In this document: one piece after another, positions 45,209 through 64,000 of the stretch
Position numbering within the stretch: the stretch's first letter is position 1
Layout of the letters: each line of letters starts with the position of its first letter
NCBI GenBank assembly: GCA_002269645.1
Contig: NIVC01003901.1
Coordinates: 38,050-102,049, forward strand
From: Macrostomum lignano
Lineage: Eukaryota
DNA: 64,000 bases
Reading direction: 5' to 3'
Notes under the pieces: model-generated
What the model was told of the DNA's origin: nothing
Databases searched by the model: none
Seen by the model: only the letters and a program-made list of their open reading frames with translations
Position numbers and translations under genes: made by a program

Positions 45209-47640
45209 TCAATTGATGTGATCAAAGAATGATGATGCCTCAGCTGGAACCCAATCAACATCCAATGGTGGCACCTCTTCCTGTTCAAGCAATAGCTTTC
45301 TACAAGAGTCACACTTACAGTTCTGCACAAACTTGCAAGCAACTGTGGCGGTGACATAGAATATTGCAGTCAGGTCTTCTAGCCAAGGATAGCTATCCAT
45401 CTCCAGCTGTGCAGCCAGCATGCTCACAGATTCCCAAACAGAGCCAGAGTTGGAGGGCACCTTGATGACACTGTCAATTTCCTTCAAGGAAAATTCCGAA
45501 TACTTCAAAAGGCTGACCACAGCAATTTTTTTGCTGTTTTCCTTCACCTGTCGTGCGGAAATGAAGAAATTCGCCCTGGACATTTGCCAAAGCCAGCCAA
45601 ATCGGTGCTCAATGCAGTCTGACTGAATCGCTCCAAGAAGCACATAGGAAAAGCCTTCATGGTTCAGCAAATGCCTTGCATAGCAGGCCAAGGCACGGCA
45701 AGTCATGCGGTAGGCAAAGAAGGTCTCCTTGGACATGCCAGGATTGCCTGACTCCTCCCAGCTGTCAAGAAAGTCAGCAAACTCCTCTAGAAACTGCAGC
45801 TTCCAGTCAAGCGATGAATGGACAGGATCCTGGCTGATGTCCCACTTGCACTTTCCTTTGTATGGCGACTTGACAATGAGGACATGCCAGAGCTTCAGCA
45901 CCAAGGTGATAAAGTCCACAGTGCCTTGCCAGGGCCTACCATCATGCTCAGAGTAGTAGCAGACAAGCATCACGGATAGACTCATTGAAGATGGCAACTG
46001 TGAGCTTCACTGAGGTCTTCTTGATGCTCTTCGGACTGAGAACAGTAGGATTCAGCTTGTGCGCTAGCTTCAGTGGCTTTGTAGCTTCCAACTTATATAG
46101 CTAGATGATGTGGTCAAATCAAGCTTCGGATCCGTGCAAAAGAGCTGGAGAGGAAGGGAGATGAAAGACTCCTCAACTCTGAAAGTTGTTGTAGATGTTT
46201 TTCAAGTTATGCACTAGATCGAATAGCACAAACACAGGCTAGCATGTTACTTCATCTATGAATGATGGATTGATGTTGCACCTTGAACTGCTGCACAGGC
46301 CTTTGGCAAATTTCCAATTGACGGCAGCGTTGTCCATGCACACTGCCATGACAGTGAACCCAAGCTTTCTCAGGACCTCCATGGCCTGCTGAAACCAATT
46401 GGAGAGCTTCTTTGCCATTAATGCAGAAACTGCGTGCATTGCCACCATATCCTTGAACTCTCCAATAACAGAGCTGATCATGAAGCAGCAAAGCGTTGAA
46501 GCCCATGCACTATCCTCATCAATGCCCATAAGCTGGCCATTGCTATATTCAATTCTACTTGCAACATAGATCTCGTCGATGACTAAGGTCACAACCTTCT
46601 CCATCTGTGACAGCTTTGAAGCTCTCAGAGCAAGGTAGCCTTCGCTGTCAAGGCCACTTGAAGATCCAACTCTTGCAGTAATTGACCTTAGCGTGCAATC
46701 AGATGGAAGGCAGATTGCATCTTGTTCAAGCATGGTCTTGTATGCTGAGGCACTAATGGAGTAGATCAAGTAGGAGAACACAAGGAGATCCTCGGAGTAC
46801 CTCCTGGTGTGTGATGGCTTCCTGCTCAGCTTCAGCTGCTCCAGGGCAAAGCTCACAGTACAATTGTCTGTCAGCCCTTCTGCTTCTTCCAAGAGATCTT
46901 GCACTGCATCTAGCAGACTGGCAACCTTGGTCTCAGAGGACTCTGCCTTGCAGGAATCTTCAGTCCAATTCTTGATTCTCGACATACAATTCACAAGTTG
47001 GCTGAGAGTCAAAGCTTTTCCTCCAGTCAGTAGGTCGCTAAACATGCTTGCTTTTAGTGGCAGTCCATTGGCTCCATATGTGATGGTAAGGTCTTTTGCA
47101 AGGCAAATATAGCAGGAAACACGGCACACTGGTTGTGTCTCTAGCATGTAGATGCACAGCTTGTTGTCCTGGATAGCCGTCTGAAATCTAGCTGGCTTGG
47201 TTGCTTCCTGCTCCAGCTTGCGCTGAATCTCCTGTAGGTCCATCTCGGCAATGGAGTCAGCTTCCAGAAAGACTCCAATCCTTTCCTTTAGCTCTCTTTG
47301 CTCTCTCTCCATGCGCTAAGACAATGTCACTGTCGTTGCTCGCGGTGCTTTCTTATCAAATGACAAGTAGATGGGAGTGTTTAGGAAGATAGACAGAACT
47401 GCTCCAGGCTTCAGACACCTCCTTGACAGTGACTCACTTCTTCTCTTATTTCGCGTGGCATTGGTATCCGCAGATGCTTCAATGAAGTCATGAGGATGAA
47501 AATGGCAAGAGCAAATCTTGGAGTACTTTGTTGGCTTGAAGTCTTTTCTCGGGTTTGCTCGCTTCCATTTCTCAAGAAGAGCAGCATCTTGGAAAAGGTA
47601 GCTGTAGAAGCTCACTCTAGATTCTGAGTTTATTATTTTG
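45209..47640 (-). pseudogene. Degenerate P-element/THAP9-like transposase
   Basis: THAP C-terminal half (W..ANPR..FKP....ICSCHF..HDF..LKPGAVLSIF), LPSDCTL, LVIDEIYV, FDLVHNLKNIYNN, KLAHKL..VLSPKSIKKTSVKL, YVLLGAIQSDCIEHRFG; several in-frame stops at 46000-46240 and a frameshift near 47315. Confidence 0.85.
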
Positions 47641-47769
47641 ACCCTGTTTTTGAACTTTTTAGACTCCCAAGGCAACAAAAATGAGTTATAAAGGTTAAAT
47701 AAGTTCAAGTTACTACATAGGGTAGTAGTGTATAATCTAGTAGAGGATATTGCCAAATTGCCATTCAGG

Positions 47770-48019
47770 AAAAGCTTGGTGCCACATGAATTCATGCCAT
47801 GCCAGCATGGCGCTGGAGTGCCATGGCAACATTGCATGTGTCACACATCTTGCTATTAGCGAGCAGGTGGTGTCTTGCCATCCATTGCATGGCTTCGTCA
47901 ACGTCTGGTACTAGTGCAACTAATTCTTGGTGGGTGACTTCAATGTCACACAGCAAGATGCTGTTGACAACTTTGGCAGCAAGCACGATAGATAGTGGCG
48001 CTCTAAGTCGGCTAGCCAT
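47770..48019 (-). pseudogene. Fragment resembling the N-terminal Zn-ribbon region of Merlin/ISXO2-like transposases
   Basis: DVDEAMQWMARHHLLANSKMCDTCNVAMALQR..DG pattern; no DDE domain visible. Confidence 0.4.
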
Positions 48020-51899: not shown

Positions 51900-52375
51900 G
51901 AGAATTTCCGGCTGAGGTTTGCCCGCGCAAGCTTTTCCCGCCGAGATTTTCTCACCGGGTTTTCCTGTCGAAGTTTCAAGTCAAATCCGATCGGATTCGA
52001 TTTGAAATCTAGTCTAGTTTATGTCTAGTCTAGTCTAGTCTAGGCTAGTTATAATTTAGTCCAGTATTGTCTATAGACTGGATTTGACTTGAAATTCCGA
52101 TTGTAAAAACCCTGCGGGAAAACCTCGCTGCGGGAAAACCTCGCTGCGGGAAAACCTCCTATGGGAAAAACTCGCTGTGGGAAAACCTCGCTGCGGGAAA
52201 ACCTCCTATGGGAAAAACTCGCTGTGGGAAAACCTCGCTGCGGGAAAACCTCCTATGGGAAAAACTCGCTGTGGGAAAACCTCGCTGCGGGAAAACCTCC
52301 TATGGGAAAAACTCGCTGTGGGAAAACCTCGCTGCGGGAAAACCTCGGCGGGAAAACTTCCTGCGGGAAATTCTG
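51900..52375. mobile_element. Foldback MITE-like element whose right arm is expanded into a tandem array (GGGAAAACCTCGCTGC..)
   Basis: TTTCAAGTCAAATCC (~51975) pairs with GGATTTGACTTGAAA (~52080); TTTTCCCGCCGAG with CTCGGCGGGAAAA; GAATTTCC with GGAAATTC; (TCTAG)n centre. Confidence 0.65.
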
Positions 52376-52894: not shown

Positions 52895-53408
52895 CATTCT
52901 CCTCGTGTTACTCCAATGTGATTGTCCAGTGTGTTACTCCAATGTGATTGTCCAGTGTGTTACTCCAATGTGATTGTCCAGTGTGTTACTCCAATGTGAT
53001 TGTCCAGTGTGTTACTCCAATGTGATTGTCCAGTGTGTTACTCCAATGTGATTGTCCAGTGTGTTACTCCAATGTGATTGTCCAGTGTGTTACTCCAATG
53101 TGATTGTCCAGTGTGTTACTCCAATGTGATTGTCCAGTGTGTTACTCCAATGTGATTGTCCAGTGTGTTACTCCAATGTGATTGTCCAGTGTGTTACTCC
53201 AATGTGATTGTCCAGTGTGTTACTCCAATGTGATTGTCCAGTGTGTTACTCCAATGTGATTGTCCAGTGTGTTACTCCAATGTGATTGTCCAGTGTGTTA
53301 CTCCAATGTGATTGTCCAGTGTGTTACTCCAATGTGATTGTCCAGTGTGTTACTCCAATGTGATTGTCCAGTGTGTTACTCCAATGTGATTGTCCAGTGT
53401 GTTACTCC
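52895..53408. repeat. 26-bp near-perfect array (GTGTGTTACTCCAATGTGATTGTCCA)n
   Basis: Direct reading, about 20 copies. Confidence 0.96.
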
Positions 53409-53447
53409 ACTCTGATGGCGACATCTGCGCGCCAATTGAGATCCAGC

Positions 53448-54292: not shown

Positions 54293-54967
54293 TTTAAAAA
54301 AGCCAATGCCGCGATATGGTGCTAGGCAGGCATAAAAAATAACTCAAAGGGCCGCTTGCACTTAGCAGGGCCGACTTATATATTTGGCTATGACTAATTG
54401 CGTAATAAATCAATTATTGAAGTGAATGGTTGGCTGTGCGTACTTGTACGGGGCAGTGATAGCGCCGGACTAAGTGAGCGAGAGAGAGAGAGGAGGCAGA
54501 TGTACACTGCCCCACAGACTCCTGGTTCGCTTCTGTGCGCAGCCACATTAATTTGAGGCTTGTGCGCAAAAATTAGCTTTAAGGATTGTCGTGCGATTCA
54601 CAGCCATGAGAGCCGACCCCCCGAGGCTTAAAGTGTGACTATTGGCAATTCGGGACCGCTGTACATCCTGCATGAGTGCGTGCCTGCGTACAGCATTAGC
54701 GCGCTTGTACGAGTATGTGTTCAAGAGTCAGCGGAATGTGCAGAATTGCCTCACCGCCGGTGATGGGGAGTAGTAGGGGAAATGTGGACTCTGCCGCAGG
54801 AATTTCCGTGGGAAAACCACGGGCCTGTAGTGTGTAAACATAGCGCCTATGTAAATGCATTGGTGGACTCTGCCGCAGGGAAAGCCATGGAAATTCCATG
54901 GGGCCTTAGTGAGAGAACATAGGCCTATGTTTTTCTATTGCTGTATGTCTGCTGCAGTGGTTTAGTC

Positions 54968-54975
54968 TATATAAG
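54968..54975 (+). promoter_or_regulatory. Candidate TATA box (TATATAAG) upstream of the first Polinton ORF
   Basis: Canonical TATAWAW, 85 nt before the ATG at 55053. Confidence 0.5.
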
Positions 54976-55052: not shown

Positions 55053-55817
55053 ATGGACATCGGCGAAGGATATAAACTCCAAATACAGGAGTATGAAGGA
55101 GTTATGTTCATTGCTATCAGAAAATTTTACCGACATGGCAGCACTGCGAGTTTGAAACCTGGAGTCCCCGGCTTCAATTTGAACATCCGTCAGTGGGAGA
55201 AGCTCAAGGAGTTGAAGCGATCGCTTGTCAAGGCGGCCTTGGACAAACAGCCAAAGGTTGTCAAACTCGGCTTCGATAAGTTCATCGAAGTGAAAAACGG
55301 CATTATCTGGTTAAAGCGATTGCCGGAGGACTGCTGCGACGAGTTTCTTAAGCGGAACACCGTGCCGCTGACACCGCCGCTGTGGCGAAAGCTGTGGCAG
55401 TACGCGGATTGGATCGACGAGCAGCTATCGGCTCCACGTGAGATTTCCGATGCATACGAGCTGGAGTCGGGATCTTCCTCCAACAGCATCGAAAATGAAG
55501 ACGATGCTGGCGAAAACGCGGAAGAGACCAAGCCGGTAGTGAAGGCGGAGGACAATGCTCCTGCTGCTGCTGGCGAGGCTGGCATGCCATCCAATCTGCA
55601 AATCGACACAGCGTTTGCCACTTCAACGCCTCTGCAACTGACCAAGCCAGCAGCTGGAGCGATTCCTCGGCAGGACACTGATCTGCAAGAGGACCCAGTC
55701 TGGTACCAATTCCGAGCTCAAGCAGCCGCCGCTGAGAACGCCAGGAAACGCAAGCAGCCGCCGTTCGCTCTGCGCAGATTGGATGCCATGAAGCTGCCCA
55801 GGCCGTGCTTCGACTGA
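55053..55817 (+). CDS. PC4 (Sub1/p15)-like ssDNA-binding protein, probably two tandem PC4 folds plus acidic tail
   Basis: IQEYEGVMFIAIRKFY..KPGVPGFNLNIRQWEKL matches PC4 (F.G...DIR..Y..KPG.KG.SL..EQW..L); a weaker second copy reads KLGFDKFIEV..VPLTPPLWRKL. Confidence 0.75.
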   Translation: MDIGEGYKLQIQEYEGVMFIAIRKFYRHGSTASLKPGVPGFNLNIRQWEKLKELKRSLVKAALDKQPKVVKLGFDKFIEVKNGIIWLKRLPEDCCDEFLKRNTVPLTPPLWRKLWQYADWIDEQLSAPREISDAYELESGSSSNSIENEDDAGENAEETKPVVKAEDNAPAAAGEAGMPSNLQIDTAFATSTPLQLTKPAAGAIPRQDTDLQEDPVWYQFRAQAAAAENARKRKQPPFALRRLDAMKLPRPCFD

Positions 55818-55985
55818 TTGCAGACCCTCTGACATTGAGACAAACTCTGTGCTACGAGCTTTTTATCCAGACCTGCTTTCCATCTCTTTGTTTGAAAATA
55901 AAAAATATATGCTTGCTTTCACATGCGCTATACATTTTCAATGTCTTAAGAAAACCTAAAAAAAAATGTTTCTTTGTTTCTGAAA

Positions 55986-57053
55986 ATGGAAAAAATTTAT
56001 TTCAATCCAAATCAGCCTGCGAGCTATTGCAGTTCTTCAAAACTGCAACATGAACTGCGAAAAAGAGGCGAGCATATTGGAGTCAAGAGCATTGAGCAGT
56101 GGCTAAGTCAGCAGCCAGTACACACTCTGCATAAGCCAGCTAGAGTACGATTTCCAAGGGCGCCAATAATAGTGAGGGCCATTGATGATCAGTGGGAGAT
56201 GGATCTGGTGGAAATGATTCCGTTTGCAAAGTATAATCGCGGGCATAAATACATTCTCACCTGCATTGATGTTTTGTCTAAATTTGCAATGGCCCGAGCA
56301 CTGAAGTCTAAGAGCGCGGCAGAAGTGAAATCTGCGTTTGAGAGCATGCTGAAGAGCTCAAAGCGGCAGCCGCGCACTGTCCGCACAGATCAGGGAAAAG
56401 AGTTTGTCAACGCAATTTTTCGCCAGTTCTGCATAGACCGGGGGATTCTGGCGTTTCCAACTAGCAGTGAGCACAAAGCAGCCATAATTGAAAGATGGAA
56501 TCGAACTTTAAAAAGCAAGATGTGGCGTTACTTTACTCACAACAGCACTCTACAATGGCTTGATGTGCTGCCTAAACTGGTCAAGTCCTATAACAATACT
56601 TTCCACAGAAGCATCAAGACTACACTAATGAATGTCAGCAAAGCAAACGAGACTGAAGTGTGGATGAACCTTTATGATGGGAAAGCGATTGAGACAGTTG
56701 AGAAACTGAGAAAACCGAAGTTCTGTGAAAACCAATCAGTGCGGATTTCCAATGCACCCAGACTCTTCAGGAAGGGATACAAGGCGAACTGGAGCGAGGA
56801 GGTGTACACCATAGTGTTTAGGGCACCAAAGCATTATCCCTACATGTACAGGATTCGAGACATGAAGGGGGAAGACATAAGAGGCCTCTTCCACGAGCAT
56901 GAGCTGCAAGCTGTTCCGGACTCGCAGCGGCTGTATGTAATCGAGAAGGTTCTGAAGACTGAGAAGCGGAAGGGTAAGATCCGATATCTCGTCAAGTGGG
57001 CCGGCTACAAGTCCACTGACTGGGTGGATGAGAAGGACTTAAGAAAAGTGTAA
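55986..57053 (+). CDS. Polinton retroviral-type (rve) DDE integrase with C-terminal chromodomain
   Basis: WEMDLVEM, YILTCIDVLSKF, RTDQGKEF, IIERWNRTLK; chromodomain YVIEKVL..RYLVKWAGY..WV. Confidence 0.95.
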   Translation: MEKIYFNPNQPASYCSSSKLQHELRKRGEHIGVKSIEQWLSQQPVHTLHKPARVRFPRAPIIVRAIDDQWEMDLVEMIPFAKYNRGHKYILTCIDVLSKFAMARALKSKSAAEVKSAFESMLKSSKRQPRTVRTDQGKEFVNAIFRQFCIDRGILAFPTSSEHKAAIIERWNRTLKSKMWRYFTHNSTLQWLDVLPKLVKSYNNTFHRSIKTTLMNVSKANETEVWMNLYDGKAIETVEKLRKPKFCENQSVRISNAPRLFRKGYKANWSEEVYTIVFRAPKHYPYMYRIRDMKGEDIRGLFHEHELQAVPDSQRLYVIEKVLKTEKRKGKIRYLVKWAGYKSTDWVDEKDLRKV

Positions 57054-57083: not shown

Positions 57084-57893
57084 ATGAGAAGCATCATCAT
57101 TTGTAGCGAAAATGCTGAAGGTACTCCTAGTGACTTTCATTTTCACCTGCCTTCACCTATTTACTTGGATCGAAATGTGGACTATGAGGCAGGTCTGGCT
57201 GAAATCCATCTGCCTGCTGCATGGTTCAATGTTGACGAGCCTTACTGCTTCACTGTCTCAGATGGAAGAGAGCATGAGGCCCTGGTTCTTCAACCCGGAC
57301 GCTTTGCTAGAGTGGAGGAACTGGTTGAGCGCATGAATGAGCTGCTGGCCAACTCTGAGTCACTGTTCTTCGATGCAATGAGCGAAAGGGAGTCTGAAAT
57401 GGAAGCTGATGAGTCCGGTTTAATGGGGCGAAGCAGCGCTAGAGATATTGGCATAAAGTTTGAAATCCAAGAGTTGAGAACGGTAGTGCTCAACAACACG
57501 GCTCGAGCAGAATTGTTCCTTCCATCAAGTAAAATTCTGCAGTGGCTGGGATTCGGAAACCAGCCTGTGAAGATCCCACCCGGACGGCAAGTGTCACTCT
57601 GCTGCATCGGTTGTCCGCCCACCAACCTGATCAACTTGCACTGCAGCATTGTGGAGCGAACAAACTGTAACTGGAACTCCGTGCTGCGAACTGTGAGCAT
57701 GTCATCCGATGTCGAATGGGGCAGCTACATGAGCAAAGTGTTTAAGAAAGCAATTTTCTTCCCGATTCAGAAAGCTAATTTTCTACATGGCATTAGATTT
57801 CAACTGCGTGACATCTTTGGCTACTCACTGACTGCTCGGAGCAGCAGCCCTGTTCTGCTCACAGTTCATATTCGGGAAAGGCTAATACAATGA
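57084..57893 (+). CDS. Polinton minor capsid protein (penton/PX)
   Basis: SDFHFHLPSPIYLD..YEAGLAEIHLPAAWFN N-terminal motif; position in cassette. Confidence 0.8.
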   Translation: MRSIIICSENAEGTPSDFHFHLPSPIYLDRNVDYEAGLAEIHLPAAWFNVDEPYCFTVSDGREHEALVLQPGRFARVEELVERMNELLANSESLFFDAMSERESEMEADESGLMGRSSARDIGIKFEIQELRTVVLNNTARAELFLPSSKILQWLGFGNQPVKIPPGRQVSLCCIGCPPTNLINLHCSIVERTNCNWNSVLRTVSMSSDVEWGSYMSKVFKKAIFFPIQKANFLHGIRFQLRDIFGYSLTARSSSPVLLTVHIRERLIQ

Positions 57894-58300
57894 ACTACCA
57901 ACAGCTGATTCGTCAGTATTCAGGGACTCTGGCAGGAAGCCAAAAGCCGGCGCTCTATGGCTGTGGGAGTTTTCCAGGAATCATGACTTACCAGCCTCCT
58001 CCAGAAGCTTCCACAAAGTCAATATCGCTATCAAAGCCAGCCCATACCACCGCCAGCGGTAGCAGCAGCAACAGCAGAAGCAATAGAAACAGACCAAAGC
58101 AGCGACTAGTCAAACAGGGCAGTAAGAAGCAGACAAAAAAGAAGAAAAAGAGTAAGACGGAGAAATCACCGAAAAGAAGCCAGTCAGGGCGAAATAAACC
58201 TAAGAAAGGGAGGTCTAAAACTCAAAGCAAGAAAACAGGCAAAGGAAAGCAAAAAGTGAGCAAAAAGACTGTGAAACGTGTTCTGGACTCGCTCTCATAG
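57890..58300 (+). CDS. Small K/R-rich putative virion core (pVII-like) protein
   Basis: Very basic C-terminal half; LYGCG adenain-type site; ATG overlaps the upstream stop (ATGA). Confidence 0.65.
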   Translation: MNYQQLIRQYSGTLAGSQKPALYGCGSFPGIMTYQPPPEASTKSISLSKPAHTTASGSSSNSRSNRNRPKQRLVKQGSKKQTKKKKKSKTEKSPKRSQSGRNKPKKGRSKTQSKKTGKGKQKVSKKTVKRVLDSLS

Positions 58301-58302
58301 CA

Positions 58303-59585
58303 ATGGCTTACGGATTCAACCCGAGACTCGATTTGTTCAAGTCCCCCATGCTGCAGACTGCCATTGAAAAATCCACATATGTTGATATTCACCCCGTGAA
58401 CTCTATTGCTACTAACTCACCTATTGAATTCGACTGTCATCCATCGGCTGATGAGTACACTGATCTGCTGAGCTCATTCCTGTATATTCGCTGTCGCCTA
58501 GTCCGGCTTGGCGGGGCTTTGATGAGGGAGGAGGTTCGAAATGCCGATGGAGTTGTCACTGAGCGCAGAGACAGTGGGGTGCACCCAGAAAACTTTGTCC
58601 TGTCTACGGCATTCTCAGATGTAATCGTGAGCATCAACCAGCGCATTGTCTCAGGCGGAGACCAGCTCTACCCCTACCATGCCTACCTAAAAGCTCTCAT
58701 GGGCTCATCCGATGCTCAGCAGTTAAAGTTCTACCCCGCCGGATTCCTGGAACCCGAAACTGCTGCTGAGGGGCATGCCGAGAGACACCGGGAGTCCCGC
58801 TGGGTGGAGTATGCGGGACCACTGCTCAGCGACATCTTCCAGTGTCCTGTTCTGCTGCTGAACAATTTACACCTGCACATCAAGCTGATGCCCAGTGATG
58901 CTGCATTCGCCATTCGAACCCCAGATGATAACAACACAGCCTACCGAATGGAAATCTCCCACTGCATTCTGAACCTGCGCCGAGTCAAAGTGGCGCCTCA
59001 CATCAGCCTGGCGCATGAGCAGGGACTGACCAATCAGAACGCACTCTACCCCATCGAGCGAACCGAAATGCAAAACTTTATTCTACCCCAGGGAATTCAG
59101 TCAAAAAACATTGAAGGATTCACCCATGGCAAACTGCCGAAGTTCGTTATGCTGGTCTTCGTGAACCACCGAGCCTTCAATGGCCATCACCATTCCAGCC
59201 CTTCGAGTTCCAGAGCTTCAACCTCAGCCAGCTAGCACTAAAGAAAGGTGGTGAAGCCATGTGCCACGCTGCATTTGCACCTGAGAATAATTCATTCGTG
59301 AGAGAGTACTTGCACTACCTGAAAAGCTGTCAGTCAGCCAGCCCTAGCAACTCGGTTCCGTGGGTCCCCTACCAGTTGTTCTCCAACGGCAACACAGCTT
59401 TCGCATTCGATCTCACGCCTGAGGGAGCGGCCCTGTGGTACGGACAGAAGGAGGGCAATTTGCGGCTGGAGATTCGCTTCCGACAGGCCCTGGAGGAGCC
59501 TGTATCTCTGATTGTTATGTGCCTGTATGACTCACTGATTGAGGTCACCAAGCACAGGGAGATTCTGTTAGATTTTCCATCCTAG
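58303..59585 (+). CDS. Polinton major capsid protein (double jelly-roll, PY/hexon), split by one -1 frameshift at ~59200; ~427 aa when restored
   Basis: LDLFKSPMLQTAIE..IHPV..PIEF, FQCPVLLLNN, YPIER; restored frame gives SPFEFQSFNL..F.NGNT.FAFDLTP..GNLRLEIRF..L.EP. Confidence 0.9.
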
Positions 59586-59608: not shown

Positions 59609-60127
59609 ATGGATGCTTTTCAACTGCTTAAACTGGCTAAAAGCTTTTTGCCACAAAATAACTATTTAATTATTGTCTTGAATTCAATAAATAAAACATC
59701 TTATGCTTTAAACTTTATTCAGCGAGCAACTCTCAAAAGAAATTTATCTCGATGTAAGTTTATTTTCTTTCTGCTTCAGTACAGCTCATCCTTCGGTCAC
59801 TGGGTGGTTTGTTATGCTGATAAGGAGAATTCCATAGAACTCTTTAACTCTCTGGGCTGGGACTCCAGCACTTTAGAGATCATTCACAGAGCACTGAAAT
59901 CCTTTTGGTATTCTCCATTCTACTTACGTAGCAATGTGAATCGAATTCAGAGCTGTGACTCTGCTAAATGCGGTTTGTTCTGTCTCTTGTTTGCCTATCA
60001 AAAGTTTCGTTTCAAGCGCTCGTTTGAGTGGGTTCTGCGGCACCTCCATGCAAATCAGCAGAGCCACTTGAATGAGAGAATGCTGCAAAGGTTTGAGAGT
60101 TGCTTAAGAAAAAAGAAATTTAATTAG
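59609..60127 (+). CDS. Adenain-like cysteine maturation protease
   Basis: GHWV (H64), LFNSLG, IQSCDSAKCGLFC (Q114, C121). Confidence 0.88.
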   Translation: MDAFQLLKLAKSFLPQNNYLIIVLNSINKTSYALNFIQRATLKRNLSRCKFIFFLLQYSSSFGHWVVCYADKENSIELFNSLGWDSSTLEIIHRALKSFWYSPFYLRSNVNRIQSCDSAKCGLFCLLFAYQKFRFKRSFEWVLRHLHANQQSHLNERMLQRFESCLRKKKFN

Positions 60128-60160: not shown

Positions 60161-60814
60161 ATGGAAACACGTGAGCGGATAAACTGTTATGATGTGCGCC
60201 TGCGACAGGGAAGCTGCATGATTGTCAGCGGGCCTACAAATGCAGGAAAGACAACCTTCGTGAAACATCTGATACAATACAAGGATGTCCTGTTTGATGT
60301 GAAGCCTGGGAGAGTTCTGTGGTACTACGGGATTTCACAAGCAGCACACTCTGAGCTCAGCAGTCTCGGCGTGCACCTGCAGCAGGGATTTCCCAGCAGT
60401 ATCGAGACCGCACTGAGACCCAATGACCTGGTTGTATTTGATGACCTGATTGAAGAAACTTCCAATTCTGCTGCAATGCGAAATGTTTTCACTGGAATTG
60501 CCCATCATTTGCCCTGCTTTCTGGTTATGCTCACCCAAAATGTATTTTTTAAAGGGAAGGAGTTGCGAACAATGAGTCTGAATGCGATGTACTTTGTGAT
60601 CATGAAGAACCCCAGAGACCAGCTGCAGATTGCAGCGCTGGGCAGGCAGTGCTTTGCTGAGAAGCCCGGATTTCTGCTGTCAGTGTTCAAGCACGTGACA
60701 TCGCACGGCAGGGGAGCCTACCTGCTCCTGGATTTTCACCCTTCCACCCCTGATGAGCTGCGCGTCCGGGCTCGAATCCTGCCCAATCAGCGACCCCACC
60801 TGGTTTACACTTAA
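60161..60814 (+). CDS. A32/FtsK-like genome-packaging ATPase
   Basis: Walker A GPTNAGKT, Walker B LVVFDDL, HH..LTQNVF, SLNA.YFV.MKNPRD, YLLLDFHP.TPD.LR.R. Confidence 0.95.
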   Translation: METRERINCYDVRLRQGSCMIVSGPTNAGKTTFVKHLIQYKDVLFDVKPGRVLWYYGISQAAHSELSSLGVHLQQGFPSSIETALRPNDLVVFDDLIEETSNSAAMRNVFTGIAHHLPCFLVMLTQNVFFKGKELRTMSLNAMYFVIMKNPRDQLQIAALGRQCFAEKPGFLLSVFKHVTSHGRGAYLLLDFHPSTPDELRVRARILPNQRPHLVYT

Positions 60815-60861
60815 GAATAACAGCCGAGATTTCGCCATTTGCTCTATATTCTGCAACACTA

Positions 60862-61179
60862 ATGATAATGGAAACATTTGACTCTCATGAAAGTTTGTTT
60901 GATGTTCTCGCGTCACCGAAATATTCCATCAGCTTTAAACGTCTGTTGATCAGAGCGGGTCCAAAAGCCGTACGTGAATTTCTCATTGAGGCCTGCTACA
61001 ACCTATTGCAAAACACTCTGTCGTTCTCACTCACTGAAAAGGCAGCGCTGGTGAAGCAAAAGCAAATAATCCGCAAAATTTCTACACATAGAAGAACTGC
61101 GGATCTGCTAAATACGGGTTTTATCAAAATTCTCTACATTCTAATAAAGCTAGTGAAGAAAAAGAAGCAAAATGAATAA
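60862..61179 (+). CDS. Polinton conserved small protein (PW-like)
   Basis: LIEACYNLL....LSLTEKAALVKQKQIIRKI pattern; hydrophobic C-terminus. Confidence 0.6.
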   Translation: MIMETFDSHESLFDVLASPKYSISFKRLLIRAGPKAVREFLIEACYNLLQNTLSFSLTEKAALVKQKQIIRKISTHRRTADLLNTGFIKILYILIKLVKKKKQNE

Positions 61180-61894
61180 GTTCTCAGAAATGGTTCTGAT
61201 CCCCAAGTCAGAGTACGACATGCTCACACAGAATTTGAAGCCAGTCGAGTCTGAAATGGACACTGCTGTGAGATATGCGCAGAGGAAATGCAATGATATT
61301 TTGCTTGCCGAGGATTGCCCAGACGATGTGAAAGCTGCCATGTACCATGATGCGATGAAGAGTTTGCTGGTCAAGCGCAAGCGGACTGGAAAGGATGGTG
61401 CGGTACCTGCGAGTGATGCAAAGATGCTGAAAACAGATATTGCACCAAGCAGCTGGGGGGAAAAGATCACCCAATCCGTGCCGCAGAAGTTTAAAGCGAG
61501 AGCCCGCAGTCTATGGGCCATCCTATCTGGCAATCCCTCTCTGATTCGGGTGTCCGAAAATGGCGAGGCGCAAATTTCTGGGAAGACAATACCCTCCTCA
61601 AACATTCTGGATTTGTTTCACAGTGCGGTGAGGGATTCGAAATGTGCCAACGAGCCGGTAGGCTGGAGTGAGTTTGTCTCATTGCTTCAAGACAAAAAGC
61701 TTAACATCCCAGCTTCGGCTATAGGAAAGTCAGTAAGGCAGCTAATTTCTAAACCGGCTGTTTCTCCAGAGGCCACCCCTGCACATCATACAGTTAAGGG
61801 ATTCGGGAGTGAGAGAGCCTGGCTACACCTGAGCAGGAAAAAAAACTATTTAAGAAGGGGAACTGAGTCGGCTTCCCGACATCTTGCGTCTTGA
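61172..61894 (+). CDS. Polinton conserved protein (PZ-like)
   Basis: VPQKFKARARSL..GEAQISGKTIPSSNILDL..P.GWSEF..L..NIP pattern. Confidence 0.7.
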   Translation: MNKFSEMVLIPKSEYDMLTQNLKPVESEMDTAVRYAQRKCNDILLAEDCPDDVKAAMYHDAMKSLLVKRKRTGKDGAVPASDAKMLKTDIAPSSWGEKITQSVPQKFKARARSLWAILSGNPSLIRVSENGEAQISGKTIPSSNILDLFHSAVRDSKCANEPVGWSEFVSLLQDKKLNIPASAIGKSVRQLISKPAVSPEATPAHHTVKGFGSERAWLHLSRKKNYLRRGTESASRHLAS

Positions 61895-61906
61895 AACCAT
61901 CCGATC

Positions 61907-62403
61907 ATGAACTATATTGACTTCCAAGGCTTCCCACGCGAGAGATCGAGCAGAGATTTCGTTGTGAAGGAGCTGGCCATTGCCCAAGTCCGGGCTGGCA
62001 GTTACCATATCACTCATCACGTGTACGCCTCTCCGTTCTCATGGGACAGAATCTCACCTGAGATGCAAGTACATTACAGAAAGCTCTCAAAGAATTTGCA
62101 TCATTTCAAGTGGACAGATGGATCCCGACCGTACATGCATTTGGCTAATGACATTCTAAACATTGCTTACGGTCCCACCTGGACAAGCGGGGTGAAAAAG
62201 TCCATCTTTCTGACTGAGCTGCTTGGCAGACAGGTGTACAACCTAGAGGATCTGGGATCACCTTTGATTCAAGCATCTGATACTGGTTGTGCAGTGAAAA
62301 ATGTATTACTGTACTACAACTGGCTGAAACCGAAGTTCTGTATCAACTTAAGAAGCGAGGTGTGCCCGCACCACTCAAAAGCTCGCAAAGACAGCACCAC
62401 TGA
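61907..62403 (+). CDS. DEDD/RNase-H-fold exonuclease-like accessory protein; probable -1 frameshift at ~62328, restored stop at 62401-62403 (ORF track runs to 62752)
   Basis: IDFQGF..FVVKELA, H..W.DG..Y, CAVKNV pattern; adding one A to AAA at 62327-62329 gives ..WLKTEVLYQLKKRGVPAPLKSSQRQHH*, ending 17 nt before the next ATG. Confidence 0.55.
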
Positions 62404-62420
62404 CAGAAAGGACTCTCTAA

Positions 62421-62984
62421 ATGAGTACACCTGCGACAGCCCTGCGAGTGACCAATCTGGTCGGCGGCGTGGATCTGAGACTTGCTGGAGACAGGGGTGC
62501 CCAGTTGCCTCTGCGGGAACTGGCTCTCAGCATGGCTCATGTCATCTATCGCCCCGTCTGGCCCCGAGTGCTTATCAAGAGGATGCGGAGTCCCAGAGTG
62601 ACTCTATTGCTCTATCCGACTGGACAACTGAGTATCTGTGGCGCCCGGAGCTACTCGGCCTCAGTCAGGGCCGCTCGTCGCTTCGTGGCTATGCTGCATC
62701 GCAGAGTGCCTGCTCAACTGCTGCCTCATCAAACTGTGCATGTGCGGATTAAAACTATTACTGCGCATGGGAAAATTGACTTGTGCAGAGCACTTCCCCT
62801 CGCTAATCTTGTGAACACTTTACCAAATGCTCAATATGAGCCAGAGTCATTTTCTGCTTTGATCTGCAAACTAAGCTTCTGCAAATGCCTGCTTTTTCAC
62901 AATGGCTCATTCGTTCTCAGTGGTGCAAAAACAATGAGCATGCTAATTTCCGACTTTTCCTTGCTTGTCCGTTTTCTGTGCTAA
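62421..62984 (+). CDS. Divergent TATA-box-binding protein (TBP)-like protein encoded by the Polinton
   Basis: Two TBP repeats: VTNLVGGVDL..LPLRELAL..YRP..VLIKRMRSPRVTLLLYPTGQLSICGARS..AARRF and IKTITAHGKI..LPLANL..YEPESFSALI..CLLFHNGSFVLSGAK, aligning with TBP NIV..YNPKRFAAVIMRIREP.TTALIF.SGK..TGAKS / YEPELFPGLI..LLIF.SGKVVLTGAK. Confidence 0.88.
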   Translation: MSTPATALRVTNLVGGVDLRLAGDRGAQLPLRELALSMAHVIYRPVWPRVLIKRMRSPRVTLLLYPTGQLSICGARSYSASVRAARRFVAMLHRRVPAQLLPHQTVHVRIKTITAHGKIDLCRALPLANLVNTLPNAQYEPESFSALICKLSFCKCLLFHNGSFVLSGAKTMSMLISDFSLLVRFLC

Positions 62985-63699: not shown

Positions 63700-64000
63700 T
63701 CACTCTAAGCAGTCCGCTGTCCTTTTCGGACTACCCCTGATTAACAGCTGAAAGTGGCCGAACGGAAGACTTGAGTTCGAGCCAGTCCACGCTCGCTTGT
63801 CCTCCCAGATACTGAGAGCGAGCTTACGTTGCTCAATGGTGAAAACGCGATGTTTCTCACTTCCAATTCGACGAACAGTGAGCGACAGCTTTGAAGCCCC
63901 CTTGAAAATCTTGACGTAGTCGTCGTGGGAGACTTCATTCTTCAGCACGCTTCGTTGGATGCCTTTTGCTTTTGCTTTGCATGCCGCCGAGCTTTCAGCG
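63700..64000 (-). CDS. C-terminus of protein-primed family B DNA polymerase (pPolB); runs off the window
   Basis: Frame open to 63999: KAKAKGI..DYVKI..IGSEKHRVFTIEQRKLALS..EDKR..SLPFGH, typical of Polinton PolB C-termini. Confidence 0.88.
   Translation of the reverse strand, partial: AESSAACKAKAKGIQRSVLKNEVSHDDYVKIFKGASKLSLTVRRIGSEKHRVFTIEQRKLALSIWEDKRAWTGSNSSLPFGHFQLLIRGSPKRTADCLE

Follow-up and report, generated by a model that had tools for sequence, protein, structure and literature searches.

A TATA-Binding Protein Gene in Polintons of Macrostomum lignano and a TATA-Like Box Ahead of Its Neighbouring Genes: A Candidate Late-Gene Switch

Gene Content and Layout of the Element

The window, that is, the whole stretch of 64,000 nucleotides of DNA that was analysed, comes from the flatworm Macrostomum lignano and contains a Polinton with genes for PolB, an rve integrase, an adenain protease and a P-loop ATPase. 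The left end of the element, which starts with AGTAGT, lies on the plus strand at 54769–54900; a similar end occurs in another copy, and contigs of two sequencing runs diverge from the window sequence at exactly 54769. At the right end of the window copy, only an inner piece of the terminal repeat was found. To the left of the element lie two tandem arrays, a GGGAAAACCTC-rich repeat (52110–52370) and an array of a 27-bp unit (52925–53410), and a broken THAP/P-element-like transposase occupies 45209–47837 on the minus strand.

The genes of the 8.2 kb cassette lie on the plus strand. A PC4-domain gene (55053–55817; Pfam PC4, E 3.6e-6) is preceded by a canonical TATA box, TATATAAG, at 54968–54975, which is a candidate early promoter. 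It is followed by an rve integrase (55986–57053; Pfam rve, E 2.4e-16) with a chromodomain (Chromo, E 1.1e-4, under the cut-off). The next three genes encode what we take to be a minor capsid protein, so named by its position (57084–57893), a core protein, which is small and basic (57890–58300), and the major capsid protein (58303–59585). The last is divided here into two frames (58303–59235 and 59259–59585) and forms a single 427-aa ORF in copy L037. None of the three has a library match, and the capsid candidates found no match in Pfam, PHROGs or PDB sequences. Downstream lie an adenain-type protease (59609–60127; Pfam Peptidase_C5, E 9.3e-5, over the cut-off) and a P-loop ATPase (60161–60814), a putative packaging ATPase by its Walker A motif and its position, with weak Pfam P-loop matches. 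Two unnamed ORFs of 105 aa (60862–61179) and 240 aa (61172–61894) are conserved, and next to them lies a nuclease-like ORF (61907–62752), whose Maelstrom-like character is a lead only (Atlas, 0.87). Contigs of three sequencing runs, presumably of RNA, cover most of the cassette, much as those of a fourth run of unstated kind do, and so give no distinct sign of expression.

The TBP Gene and Its Fold

The final gene of the plus-strand run, at 62421–62984, encodes a TATA-binding protein (TBP) with an altered DNA-binding face. The original prediction of an intronless 187-aa ORF that closes the cassette was confirmed: the frame is single and unbroken, and what comes next is the convergent C-terminal end of PolB, of protein-primed type (63700–64000, minus strand; Pfam DNA_pol_B_2, E 9.4e-9 and 9.5e-7). 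The PolB gene of this copy is split over four ORFs and runs past the window.

The proposal that the protein is a bare two-repeat TBP saddle also held. The Pfam TBP profile matches strongly (E 4.5e-22) in two stretches that correspond to both repeats, as expected for family PF00352, and all 35 distinct PDB sequences that match the ORF are TBPs or TBP-containing constructs. The AlphaFold2 model has a pLDDT of 93, and Foldseek aligns it to solved TBPs with TM scores of 0.75–0.84. At the sequence level the protein is 20–28% identical to solved cellular TBPs and 8–14% identical to the named giant-virus matches in BFVD.

The 281-codon nuclease-like ORF, read in another frame, extends over the first 332 nt of the TBP gene, and its low-complexity tail stays open across TBP codons 1–110 in 52 of 53 gene pairs. 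The rough chance of such a stop-free overlap is 0.000–0.003 in ten related lineage-1 copies; for two copies of lineage 2 it comes to 0.014 and 0.13. The tail itself showed no protein-level conservation, with pN exceeding pS in the alternative frame in eight of nine pairs. The open overlap may hinder reinitiation at the TBP ATGs from an upstream mRNA.

DNA-Binding Face and Stirrup

Residues were compared by aligning the element TBP with host TBP and are given in yeast numbering unless they are named as residues of the window protein. In lineages 1 and 2 (the window type and a second lineage described below), N69, V71, T112, L114, F190, F207 and the two stirrup glutamates are kept relative to host TBP. 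In the window protein, N69 corresponds to N12, F190 to F144, F207 to F159, and the stirrup glutamates to E140 and E142. All aligned rows, 14 of 14 and 11 of 11, have these two glutamates, and the stirrup Glu is invariant across all three lineages found. Thus, an acidic stirrup and both phenylalanine equivalents of repeat 2 are present as had been predicted.

The same is true of the predicted remodelling of repeat 1 and the change of the second asparagine to threonine. The F99 position is taken by P48, with W47 adjacent, and F116 by Y65, so that only two of the four intercalating phenylalanines of canonical TBP are kept, one being replaced by Tyr and one falling at a Pro/Trp position. The canonical pair of asparagines and the repeat-2 proline are likewise incomplete, as N12 is retained while window residues T112 and S145 stand in place of N159, the second symmetric asparagine, and P191. 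The DNA face of repeat 2 is altered as well (Q158K, V161T, P191S and V203K). F116Y, T124C, Q158K, N159T, V161T, P191S/N and V203K are common to lineages 1 and 2, and F99 is lost in both, in a loop that contains a conserved Pro-Arg. With one intercalating phenylalanine missing, DNA binding could perhaps be weak. According to passages of PMC12529657, the repeat-2 proline gives a preference for T as the first letter of the TATA box, and acidic TBP residues contact TFIIB.

Copies, Selection and Phylogeny

The genome holds at least 152 matches to the TBP, and those of nearly full length are between 38% and 100% identical. With 150 of 237 candidate matches scored, these figures are not copy numbers, and element copy counts are inflated by duplicated haplotypes, since the host TBP and TRF2 cores, each in one uninterrupted ORF, are each present three times in the assembly (L059–L064). 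Among 90 loci examined, 83 carry a TBP match, of which three are the host gene. All 80 non-host loci, not independent events because some of the 90 overlap, have adjoining element genes (a core Polinton gene in 70, accessory genes in ten), so the linkage of this TBP to Polintons is not peculiar to the window.

A second Polinton lineage has the same gene order, with 34% identity in TBP, 41–46% in the capsid protein and 40–47% in the ATPase. One of its copies has terminal inverted repeats and a 6-bp target-site duplication. The PolB and PC4 ends are swapped in lineage 2 relative to lineage 1, and TATATAAT is found near both ends of lineage-2 copies (L087, L032), before PolB and before PC4.

Selection was assessed on 69 intact TBP ORFs, 40 of them distinct, in pairwise comparison with the window type. 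For residues 9–104, dN/dS is 0.09–0.17 in nine more divergent lineage-1 copies; for residues 112–180, it is 0.03–0.20 where synonymous sites are unsaturated. These values, far under 1 at about 0.1–0.2, indicate purifying selection. Repeat 1 is constrained like the ATPase, with a pN of 0.06 in seven of eight copies. Repeat 2 is more variable (pN 0.17–0.26) and has been exchanged through recombination. In one subfamily (L022–L030 and L037), identity to the window is 95–99% until mid-TBP and about 54% in PolB. Synonymous divergence in these copies leaps from 0.12 to 0.81 between the two TBP repeats, which points to recombination within the TBP gene.

A tree was built from 159 sequences and 177 columns, after removal of nine fusions, fragments or near-duplicates and of one row that could not be aligned. 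One clade, with a support of 0.90, unites lineages 1 and 2 with seven other database proteins and stands apart from TBP and TRF2. Its lineage-1 and lineage-2 members are 22–28% identical to host TBP. No TBP donor is claimed, because deep nodes are weak and branches are long. Other datasets supplied several relatives of the protein (P0002-4, P0009, P0019, P0158-60 and P0171-74). A search of viral and metagenome contigs for related loci gave no confirmed relative, and the phage records searched gave no match.

The lack of introns and of an N-terminal extension might suggest a retrocopy of host TBP that landed in one element as neutral cargo. This reading is refuted by the separate clade and the low identity to host TBP, by the linkage to element genes, by the occupation of the same slot in deeply split lineages, and by the dN/dS of 0.1–0.2. 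Judged by these comparisons, the element TBP is an old, long-resident Polinton gene.

A paralogue, P0001, which is 78% identical to the element TBP, carries a gene-model name, and passages of PMC5730564 describe models with names of this type as built using RNA data. The name may hint at RNA support, a link weakened by the mapping of reads to a multi-copy gene.

A TATA-Like Box Upstream of Genes in Lineages 1 and 2

A recurrent motif, YWTAAGAA, precedes many of the cassette genes. It is TATA-like, its first letter being a pyrimidine and its sixth a G. In the window, CTTAAGAA lies 41 nt before the integrase (55945–55952), 46 nt upstream of the gene for the putative minor capsid protein and inside the integrase frame (57038–57045), 58 nt before the ATPase and inside the protease frame (60103–60110), and, across the stop codon of the ATPase, 52 nt upstream of the 105-aa ORF (60810–60817). 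The form TTTAAGAA stands 149 nt before the basic-protein gene (57741–57748) and 58 nt before the nuclease-like gene (61849–61856); in other subfamilies the box before the latter gene is TATATAAGAA, which is also a canonical TATA. Within the upstream coding frame, CTTAAGAAG lies 74 nt before TBP (62347–62355). All of these boxes, found by motif match, are on the plus strand.

The cassette has seven YWTAAGAA motifs on its plus strand, compared with 0.70 expected and a maximum of three in 300 shuffles, and one on its minus strand. All seven stand 41–149 nt before a start, ahead of seven of the 11 cassette genes. The motif was derived from the same sequences, and an unbiased test was therefore run, in which the best shared 7-mer was found in six of 11 upstream windows, a result equalled in one of 5000 random draws.

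Enrichment is confined in extent. YWTAAGAA is absent from the PolB arm of the window element and is not enriched across the whole window (9 versus 7.81 expected). The whole L037 locus has five boxes against 2.02 expected, a number reached in 12 of 200 shuffles, and with a looser pattern L110 has five against 5.05 expected, all five on the coding strand. The protease is without the box (0 of 9 starts), as is the 240-aa ORF, where even the looser pattern occurs in 1 of 67 starts. The capsid gene has a box in six of eight starts, although it is absent in the window's subfamily.

Ahead of TBP, the box is found in 55 of 55 lineage-1 starts, counts that are not independent because the element copies are related. 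It requires a TTA codon in the upstream frame, a codon used for 14 of 168 leucines. CTTAAGAAG occurs once in each of 55 of 122 loci and in none of the other 67. Relative to the upstream genes, the boxes do not share one reading frame. In lineage 2, a WTAAGAR core precedes largely the same genes, and the core TAAG is present in every lineage-1 and lineage-2 box. Across copies, the distance from box to ATG varies between 28 and 149 nt.

Such variable spacing, together with the tight packing of the genes, would suit a box that acts in RNA processing or translation, in which case the TBP might serve to bend DNA during replication, integration or packaging. Passages of PMC5730564 report that in flatworms trans-splicing of multi-gene precursors yields many of the transcripts. 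However, several boxes precede the stop codon of the upstream gene and are ill-suited to a 3′-end signal, no common pyrimidine tract with AG follows the boxes, and a DNA-bending role would not need the TFIIB-contacting glutamates. This explanation is regarded as quite improbable.

Canonical TATA Boxes as Candidate Early-Type Promoters

Canonical boxes mark a different set of positions. PC4 has the same canonical TATA ahead of it in L089, a subfamily copy with 44% identity in PC4. In most subfamilies of lineage 1, TATAWAAG is found before the nuclease-like gene; it also stands before TBP in 17 of 18 lineage-2 starts and before the TBP unit in all 12 lineage-3 loci (L111–L122). The window's own subfamily (L001–L030 and L037) has no TATAWAAG ahead of the TBP unit.

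A Third Lineage with Another TBP-Like Gene and Another Box

A third lineage, whose capsid protein is 26–35% identical, was considered as a TBP-less Polinton control and was dropped from that role because it carries a TBP-like gene. The frame in question (L099, 2537–3617; L107, 2010–3218), which has diverged further, has a Pfam match of E 1.2e-4, just under the cut-off, and a profile match to the family of E 6.7e-5. It is without a conserved ATG, and it contains a variable basic stretch (L099, 3077–3143; L107, 2548–2744) bounded by a splice donor and an acceptor that are both conserved. This arrangement suggests that the gene is probably a spliced fusion to an upstream domain of 180 aa. Four relatives of this domain, from other datasets, end alike, and 91 genomic matches were counted. 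The upstream domain has no Pfam match and does not resemble the nuclease-like gene, and its structure model is too poor to be searched. A Fic-domain gene also occurs in this lineage (L099, 765–1544; Pfam, E 8e-14), and no PolB match was found in the lineage-3 stretches examined.

The box of lineage 3 is of another type. TAYAAATA stands ahead of the lineage-3 genes and is found eight and nine times in two loci, all on the coding strand, compared with 0.56 and 0.70 expected, and YWTAAGAA shows no enrichment there (2 versus 1.58, and 0 versus 1.64). TAYAAATA is absent from the cassette of the window. One of its forms, TATAAATA, is a canonical-looking TATA, with one copy in the PolB arm of the window element. 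The pattern fits a co-variation of protein and box, although it comprises just two box types in one genome.

The same comparison bears on the possibility that the box is read by the machinery of a helper virus, as virophage promoters mirror those of giant-virus helpers, with a separate role for the TBP. The TAAG core of all lineage-1 and lineage-2 boxes resembles baculovirus late promoters, and promoter sharing with helpers is a theme of virophage papers. Yet no helper is in evidence, lineage 3 is without the TAAG core in the same genome, and all three lineages keep a TBP gene, which in most subfamilies stands behind a TATA of early type. A reading of the box by helper machinery is very improbable.

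A further reading treats the box as a weak TATA-like promoter served by host TBP/TFIID or by TRF2, with the element TBP as a decoy that titrates TFIIB or TBP partners and dampens host transcription or defence. The stirrup glutamates, invariant in all three lineages, and the loss of an intercalating phenylalanine would suit this role, and the host genome has both TBP and TRF2. Moreover, passages of PMC4740812 indicate that most yeast promoters are TATA-like, with two mismatches or fewer, and are served by TFIID. A decoy, however, would have no need of a conserved non-canonical DNA face, where repeat 1 has a pN of 0.06, nor of the same substitutions fixed in lineages that are 34% identical, and the box differs where the TBP type differs. 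The decoy had been one branch of the original prediction; the conserved face and the change of box with TBP type weaken it, leaving it unlikely.

Proposed Mechanism

Fold, linkage to Polinton genes, purifying selection, the box and its placement are established, and from them we infer DNA binding, transcription starts and timing. In the favoured reading, to which a probability of about 0.6 is assigned, an element TBP of altered specificity switches on late genes through host TFIIB and polymerase II. This was the other branch of the original prediction, and it gains from the shared box in lineages that share the substitutions and from the different box that accompanies a different TBP, while still depending on inference.

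In a first step, host TBP/TFIID would read the canonical TATA boxes that precede PC4 and the TBP unit and those in the PolB arm, although the missing TATAWAAG before the TBP unit counts against such an early trigger in the window's subfamily. In a second step, the element TBP would bind YWTAAGAA, which it is expected to prefer over TATAAAAG. Repeat 2 reads the 5′ half of a TATA box and repeat 1 the 3′ half. The lost repeat-2 proline would relax position 1 of the box, and the remodelled repeat 1, with its conserved Pro-Arg and Tyr, would read the AGAA half. In a third step, the acidic stirrup would recruit host TFIIB and polymerase II to the integrase, capsid and ATPase genes and their neighbours. 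As the lineage-1 TBP gene carries the box itself, it could amplify its own expression.

A broader proposal, put forward tentatively and at somewhat less than even odds, is that animal Polintons run a one-protein, sigma-factor-like cascade. In each lineage, the TBP face would have co-evolved with its own late box (YWTAAGAA or TAYAAATA), using host TFIIB and polymerase II.

Significance

We know of no account of how Polintons, which have no RNA polymerase, control the timing of their virion genes. A conserved TBP with a matching box would name both the switch and its target. If the favoured reading is true, these elements are a minimal case of a virus that reprograms polymerase II by one protein, and they provide a natural altered-specificity TBP that is useful for understanding TATA recognition. 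If co-evolution is also true, they offer naturally evolved, partly orthogonal TBP–TATA pairs and a handle on the timing of particle making. As transgenesis and 5′-end data are available for the worm, late-gene activity is directly measurable.

Comparison with Known Systems

The elements share PolB, the rve integrase, the adenain protease, the ATPase, AGTAGT ends and, in a lineage-2 copy, the 6-bp target duplication with Polintons/Mavericks (adintoviruses), and differ from them in the added PC4 and TBP genes and the internal promoter-like box. Host TBP and TRF2/TLF have the two-repeat saddle and the acidic stirrup in common with the element TBP. Host TBP, unlike it, keeps all four phenylalanines and both asparagines, whereas TRF2 has lost phenylalanines in a different pattern and belongs to a separate clade.

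A TBP in a Polinton is less novel than earlier assumed, given well-studied herpesvirus mimics and a legend label; the pairing of TBP and box is the new part. The label, 'TBP', is applied in the legend of Fig. 5 of Starrett et al. (PMC8502044) to a gene of a MELD virus or a related element with adintovirus-like PolB. It is a legend entry only, in a section mostly on non-animal datasets, and may bear on novelty; the main text of that paper has no occurrence of 'promoter' and its supplement text none of TBP. One nematode Polinton preprint contains none of the terms TBP, TATA or promoter, and a literature search, with subscription journals largely outside its scope, returned no paper that pairs a Polinton TBP with a promoter box.

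The TBP-like factors of Nucleocytoviricota and mirusviruses also represent a viral TBP fold. Viral TBPs are described in passages on mirusviruses (PMC10132985) and on mirusvirus-like algal elements (PMC10675990). In poxvirus, stage-specific promoters are served by VITF-3 (PMC12917281, abstract), whose partners are an RNA polymerase encoded by the virus and a TFIIB-like protein; in the elements described here, of roughly 13–18 kb, no RNA polymerase or TFIIB-like gene was seen.

The closest functional parallel is provided by the TBP mimics of beta- and gamma-herpesviruses. As with KSHV ORF24 and its TATTWAA late promoters, a viral TBP fold is proposed to act on a non-canonical late box with host RNA polymerase II (PMC12529657, in passages), and here too a short, non-canonical TATA-like motif stands ahead of putative structural genes. 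The same passages describe ORF24 as a large multi-domain protein that works in a six-factor complex and binds Pol II directly, with four essential phenylalanines kept and the acidic TFIIB residues absent. The element TBP, in contrast, is a bare saddle of 187 aa in which the acidic stirrup is retained and one phenylalanine is lost, and it has no evident viral partners. By analogy, it would work like the herpesvirus mimics, but it is not a member of their group.
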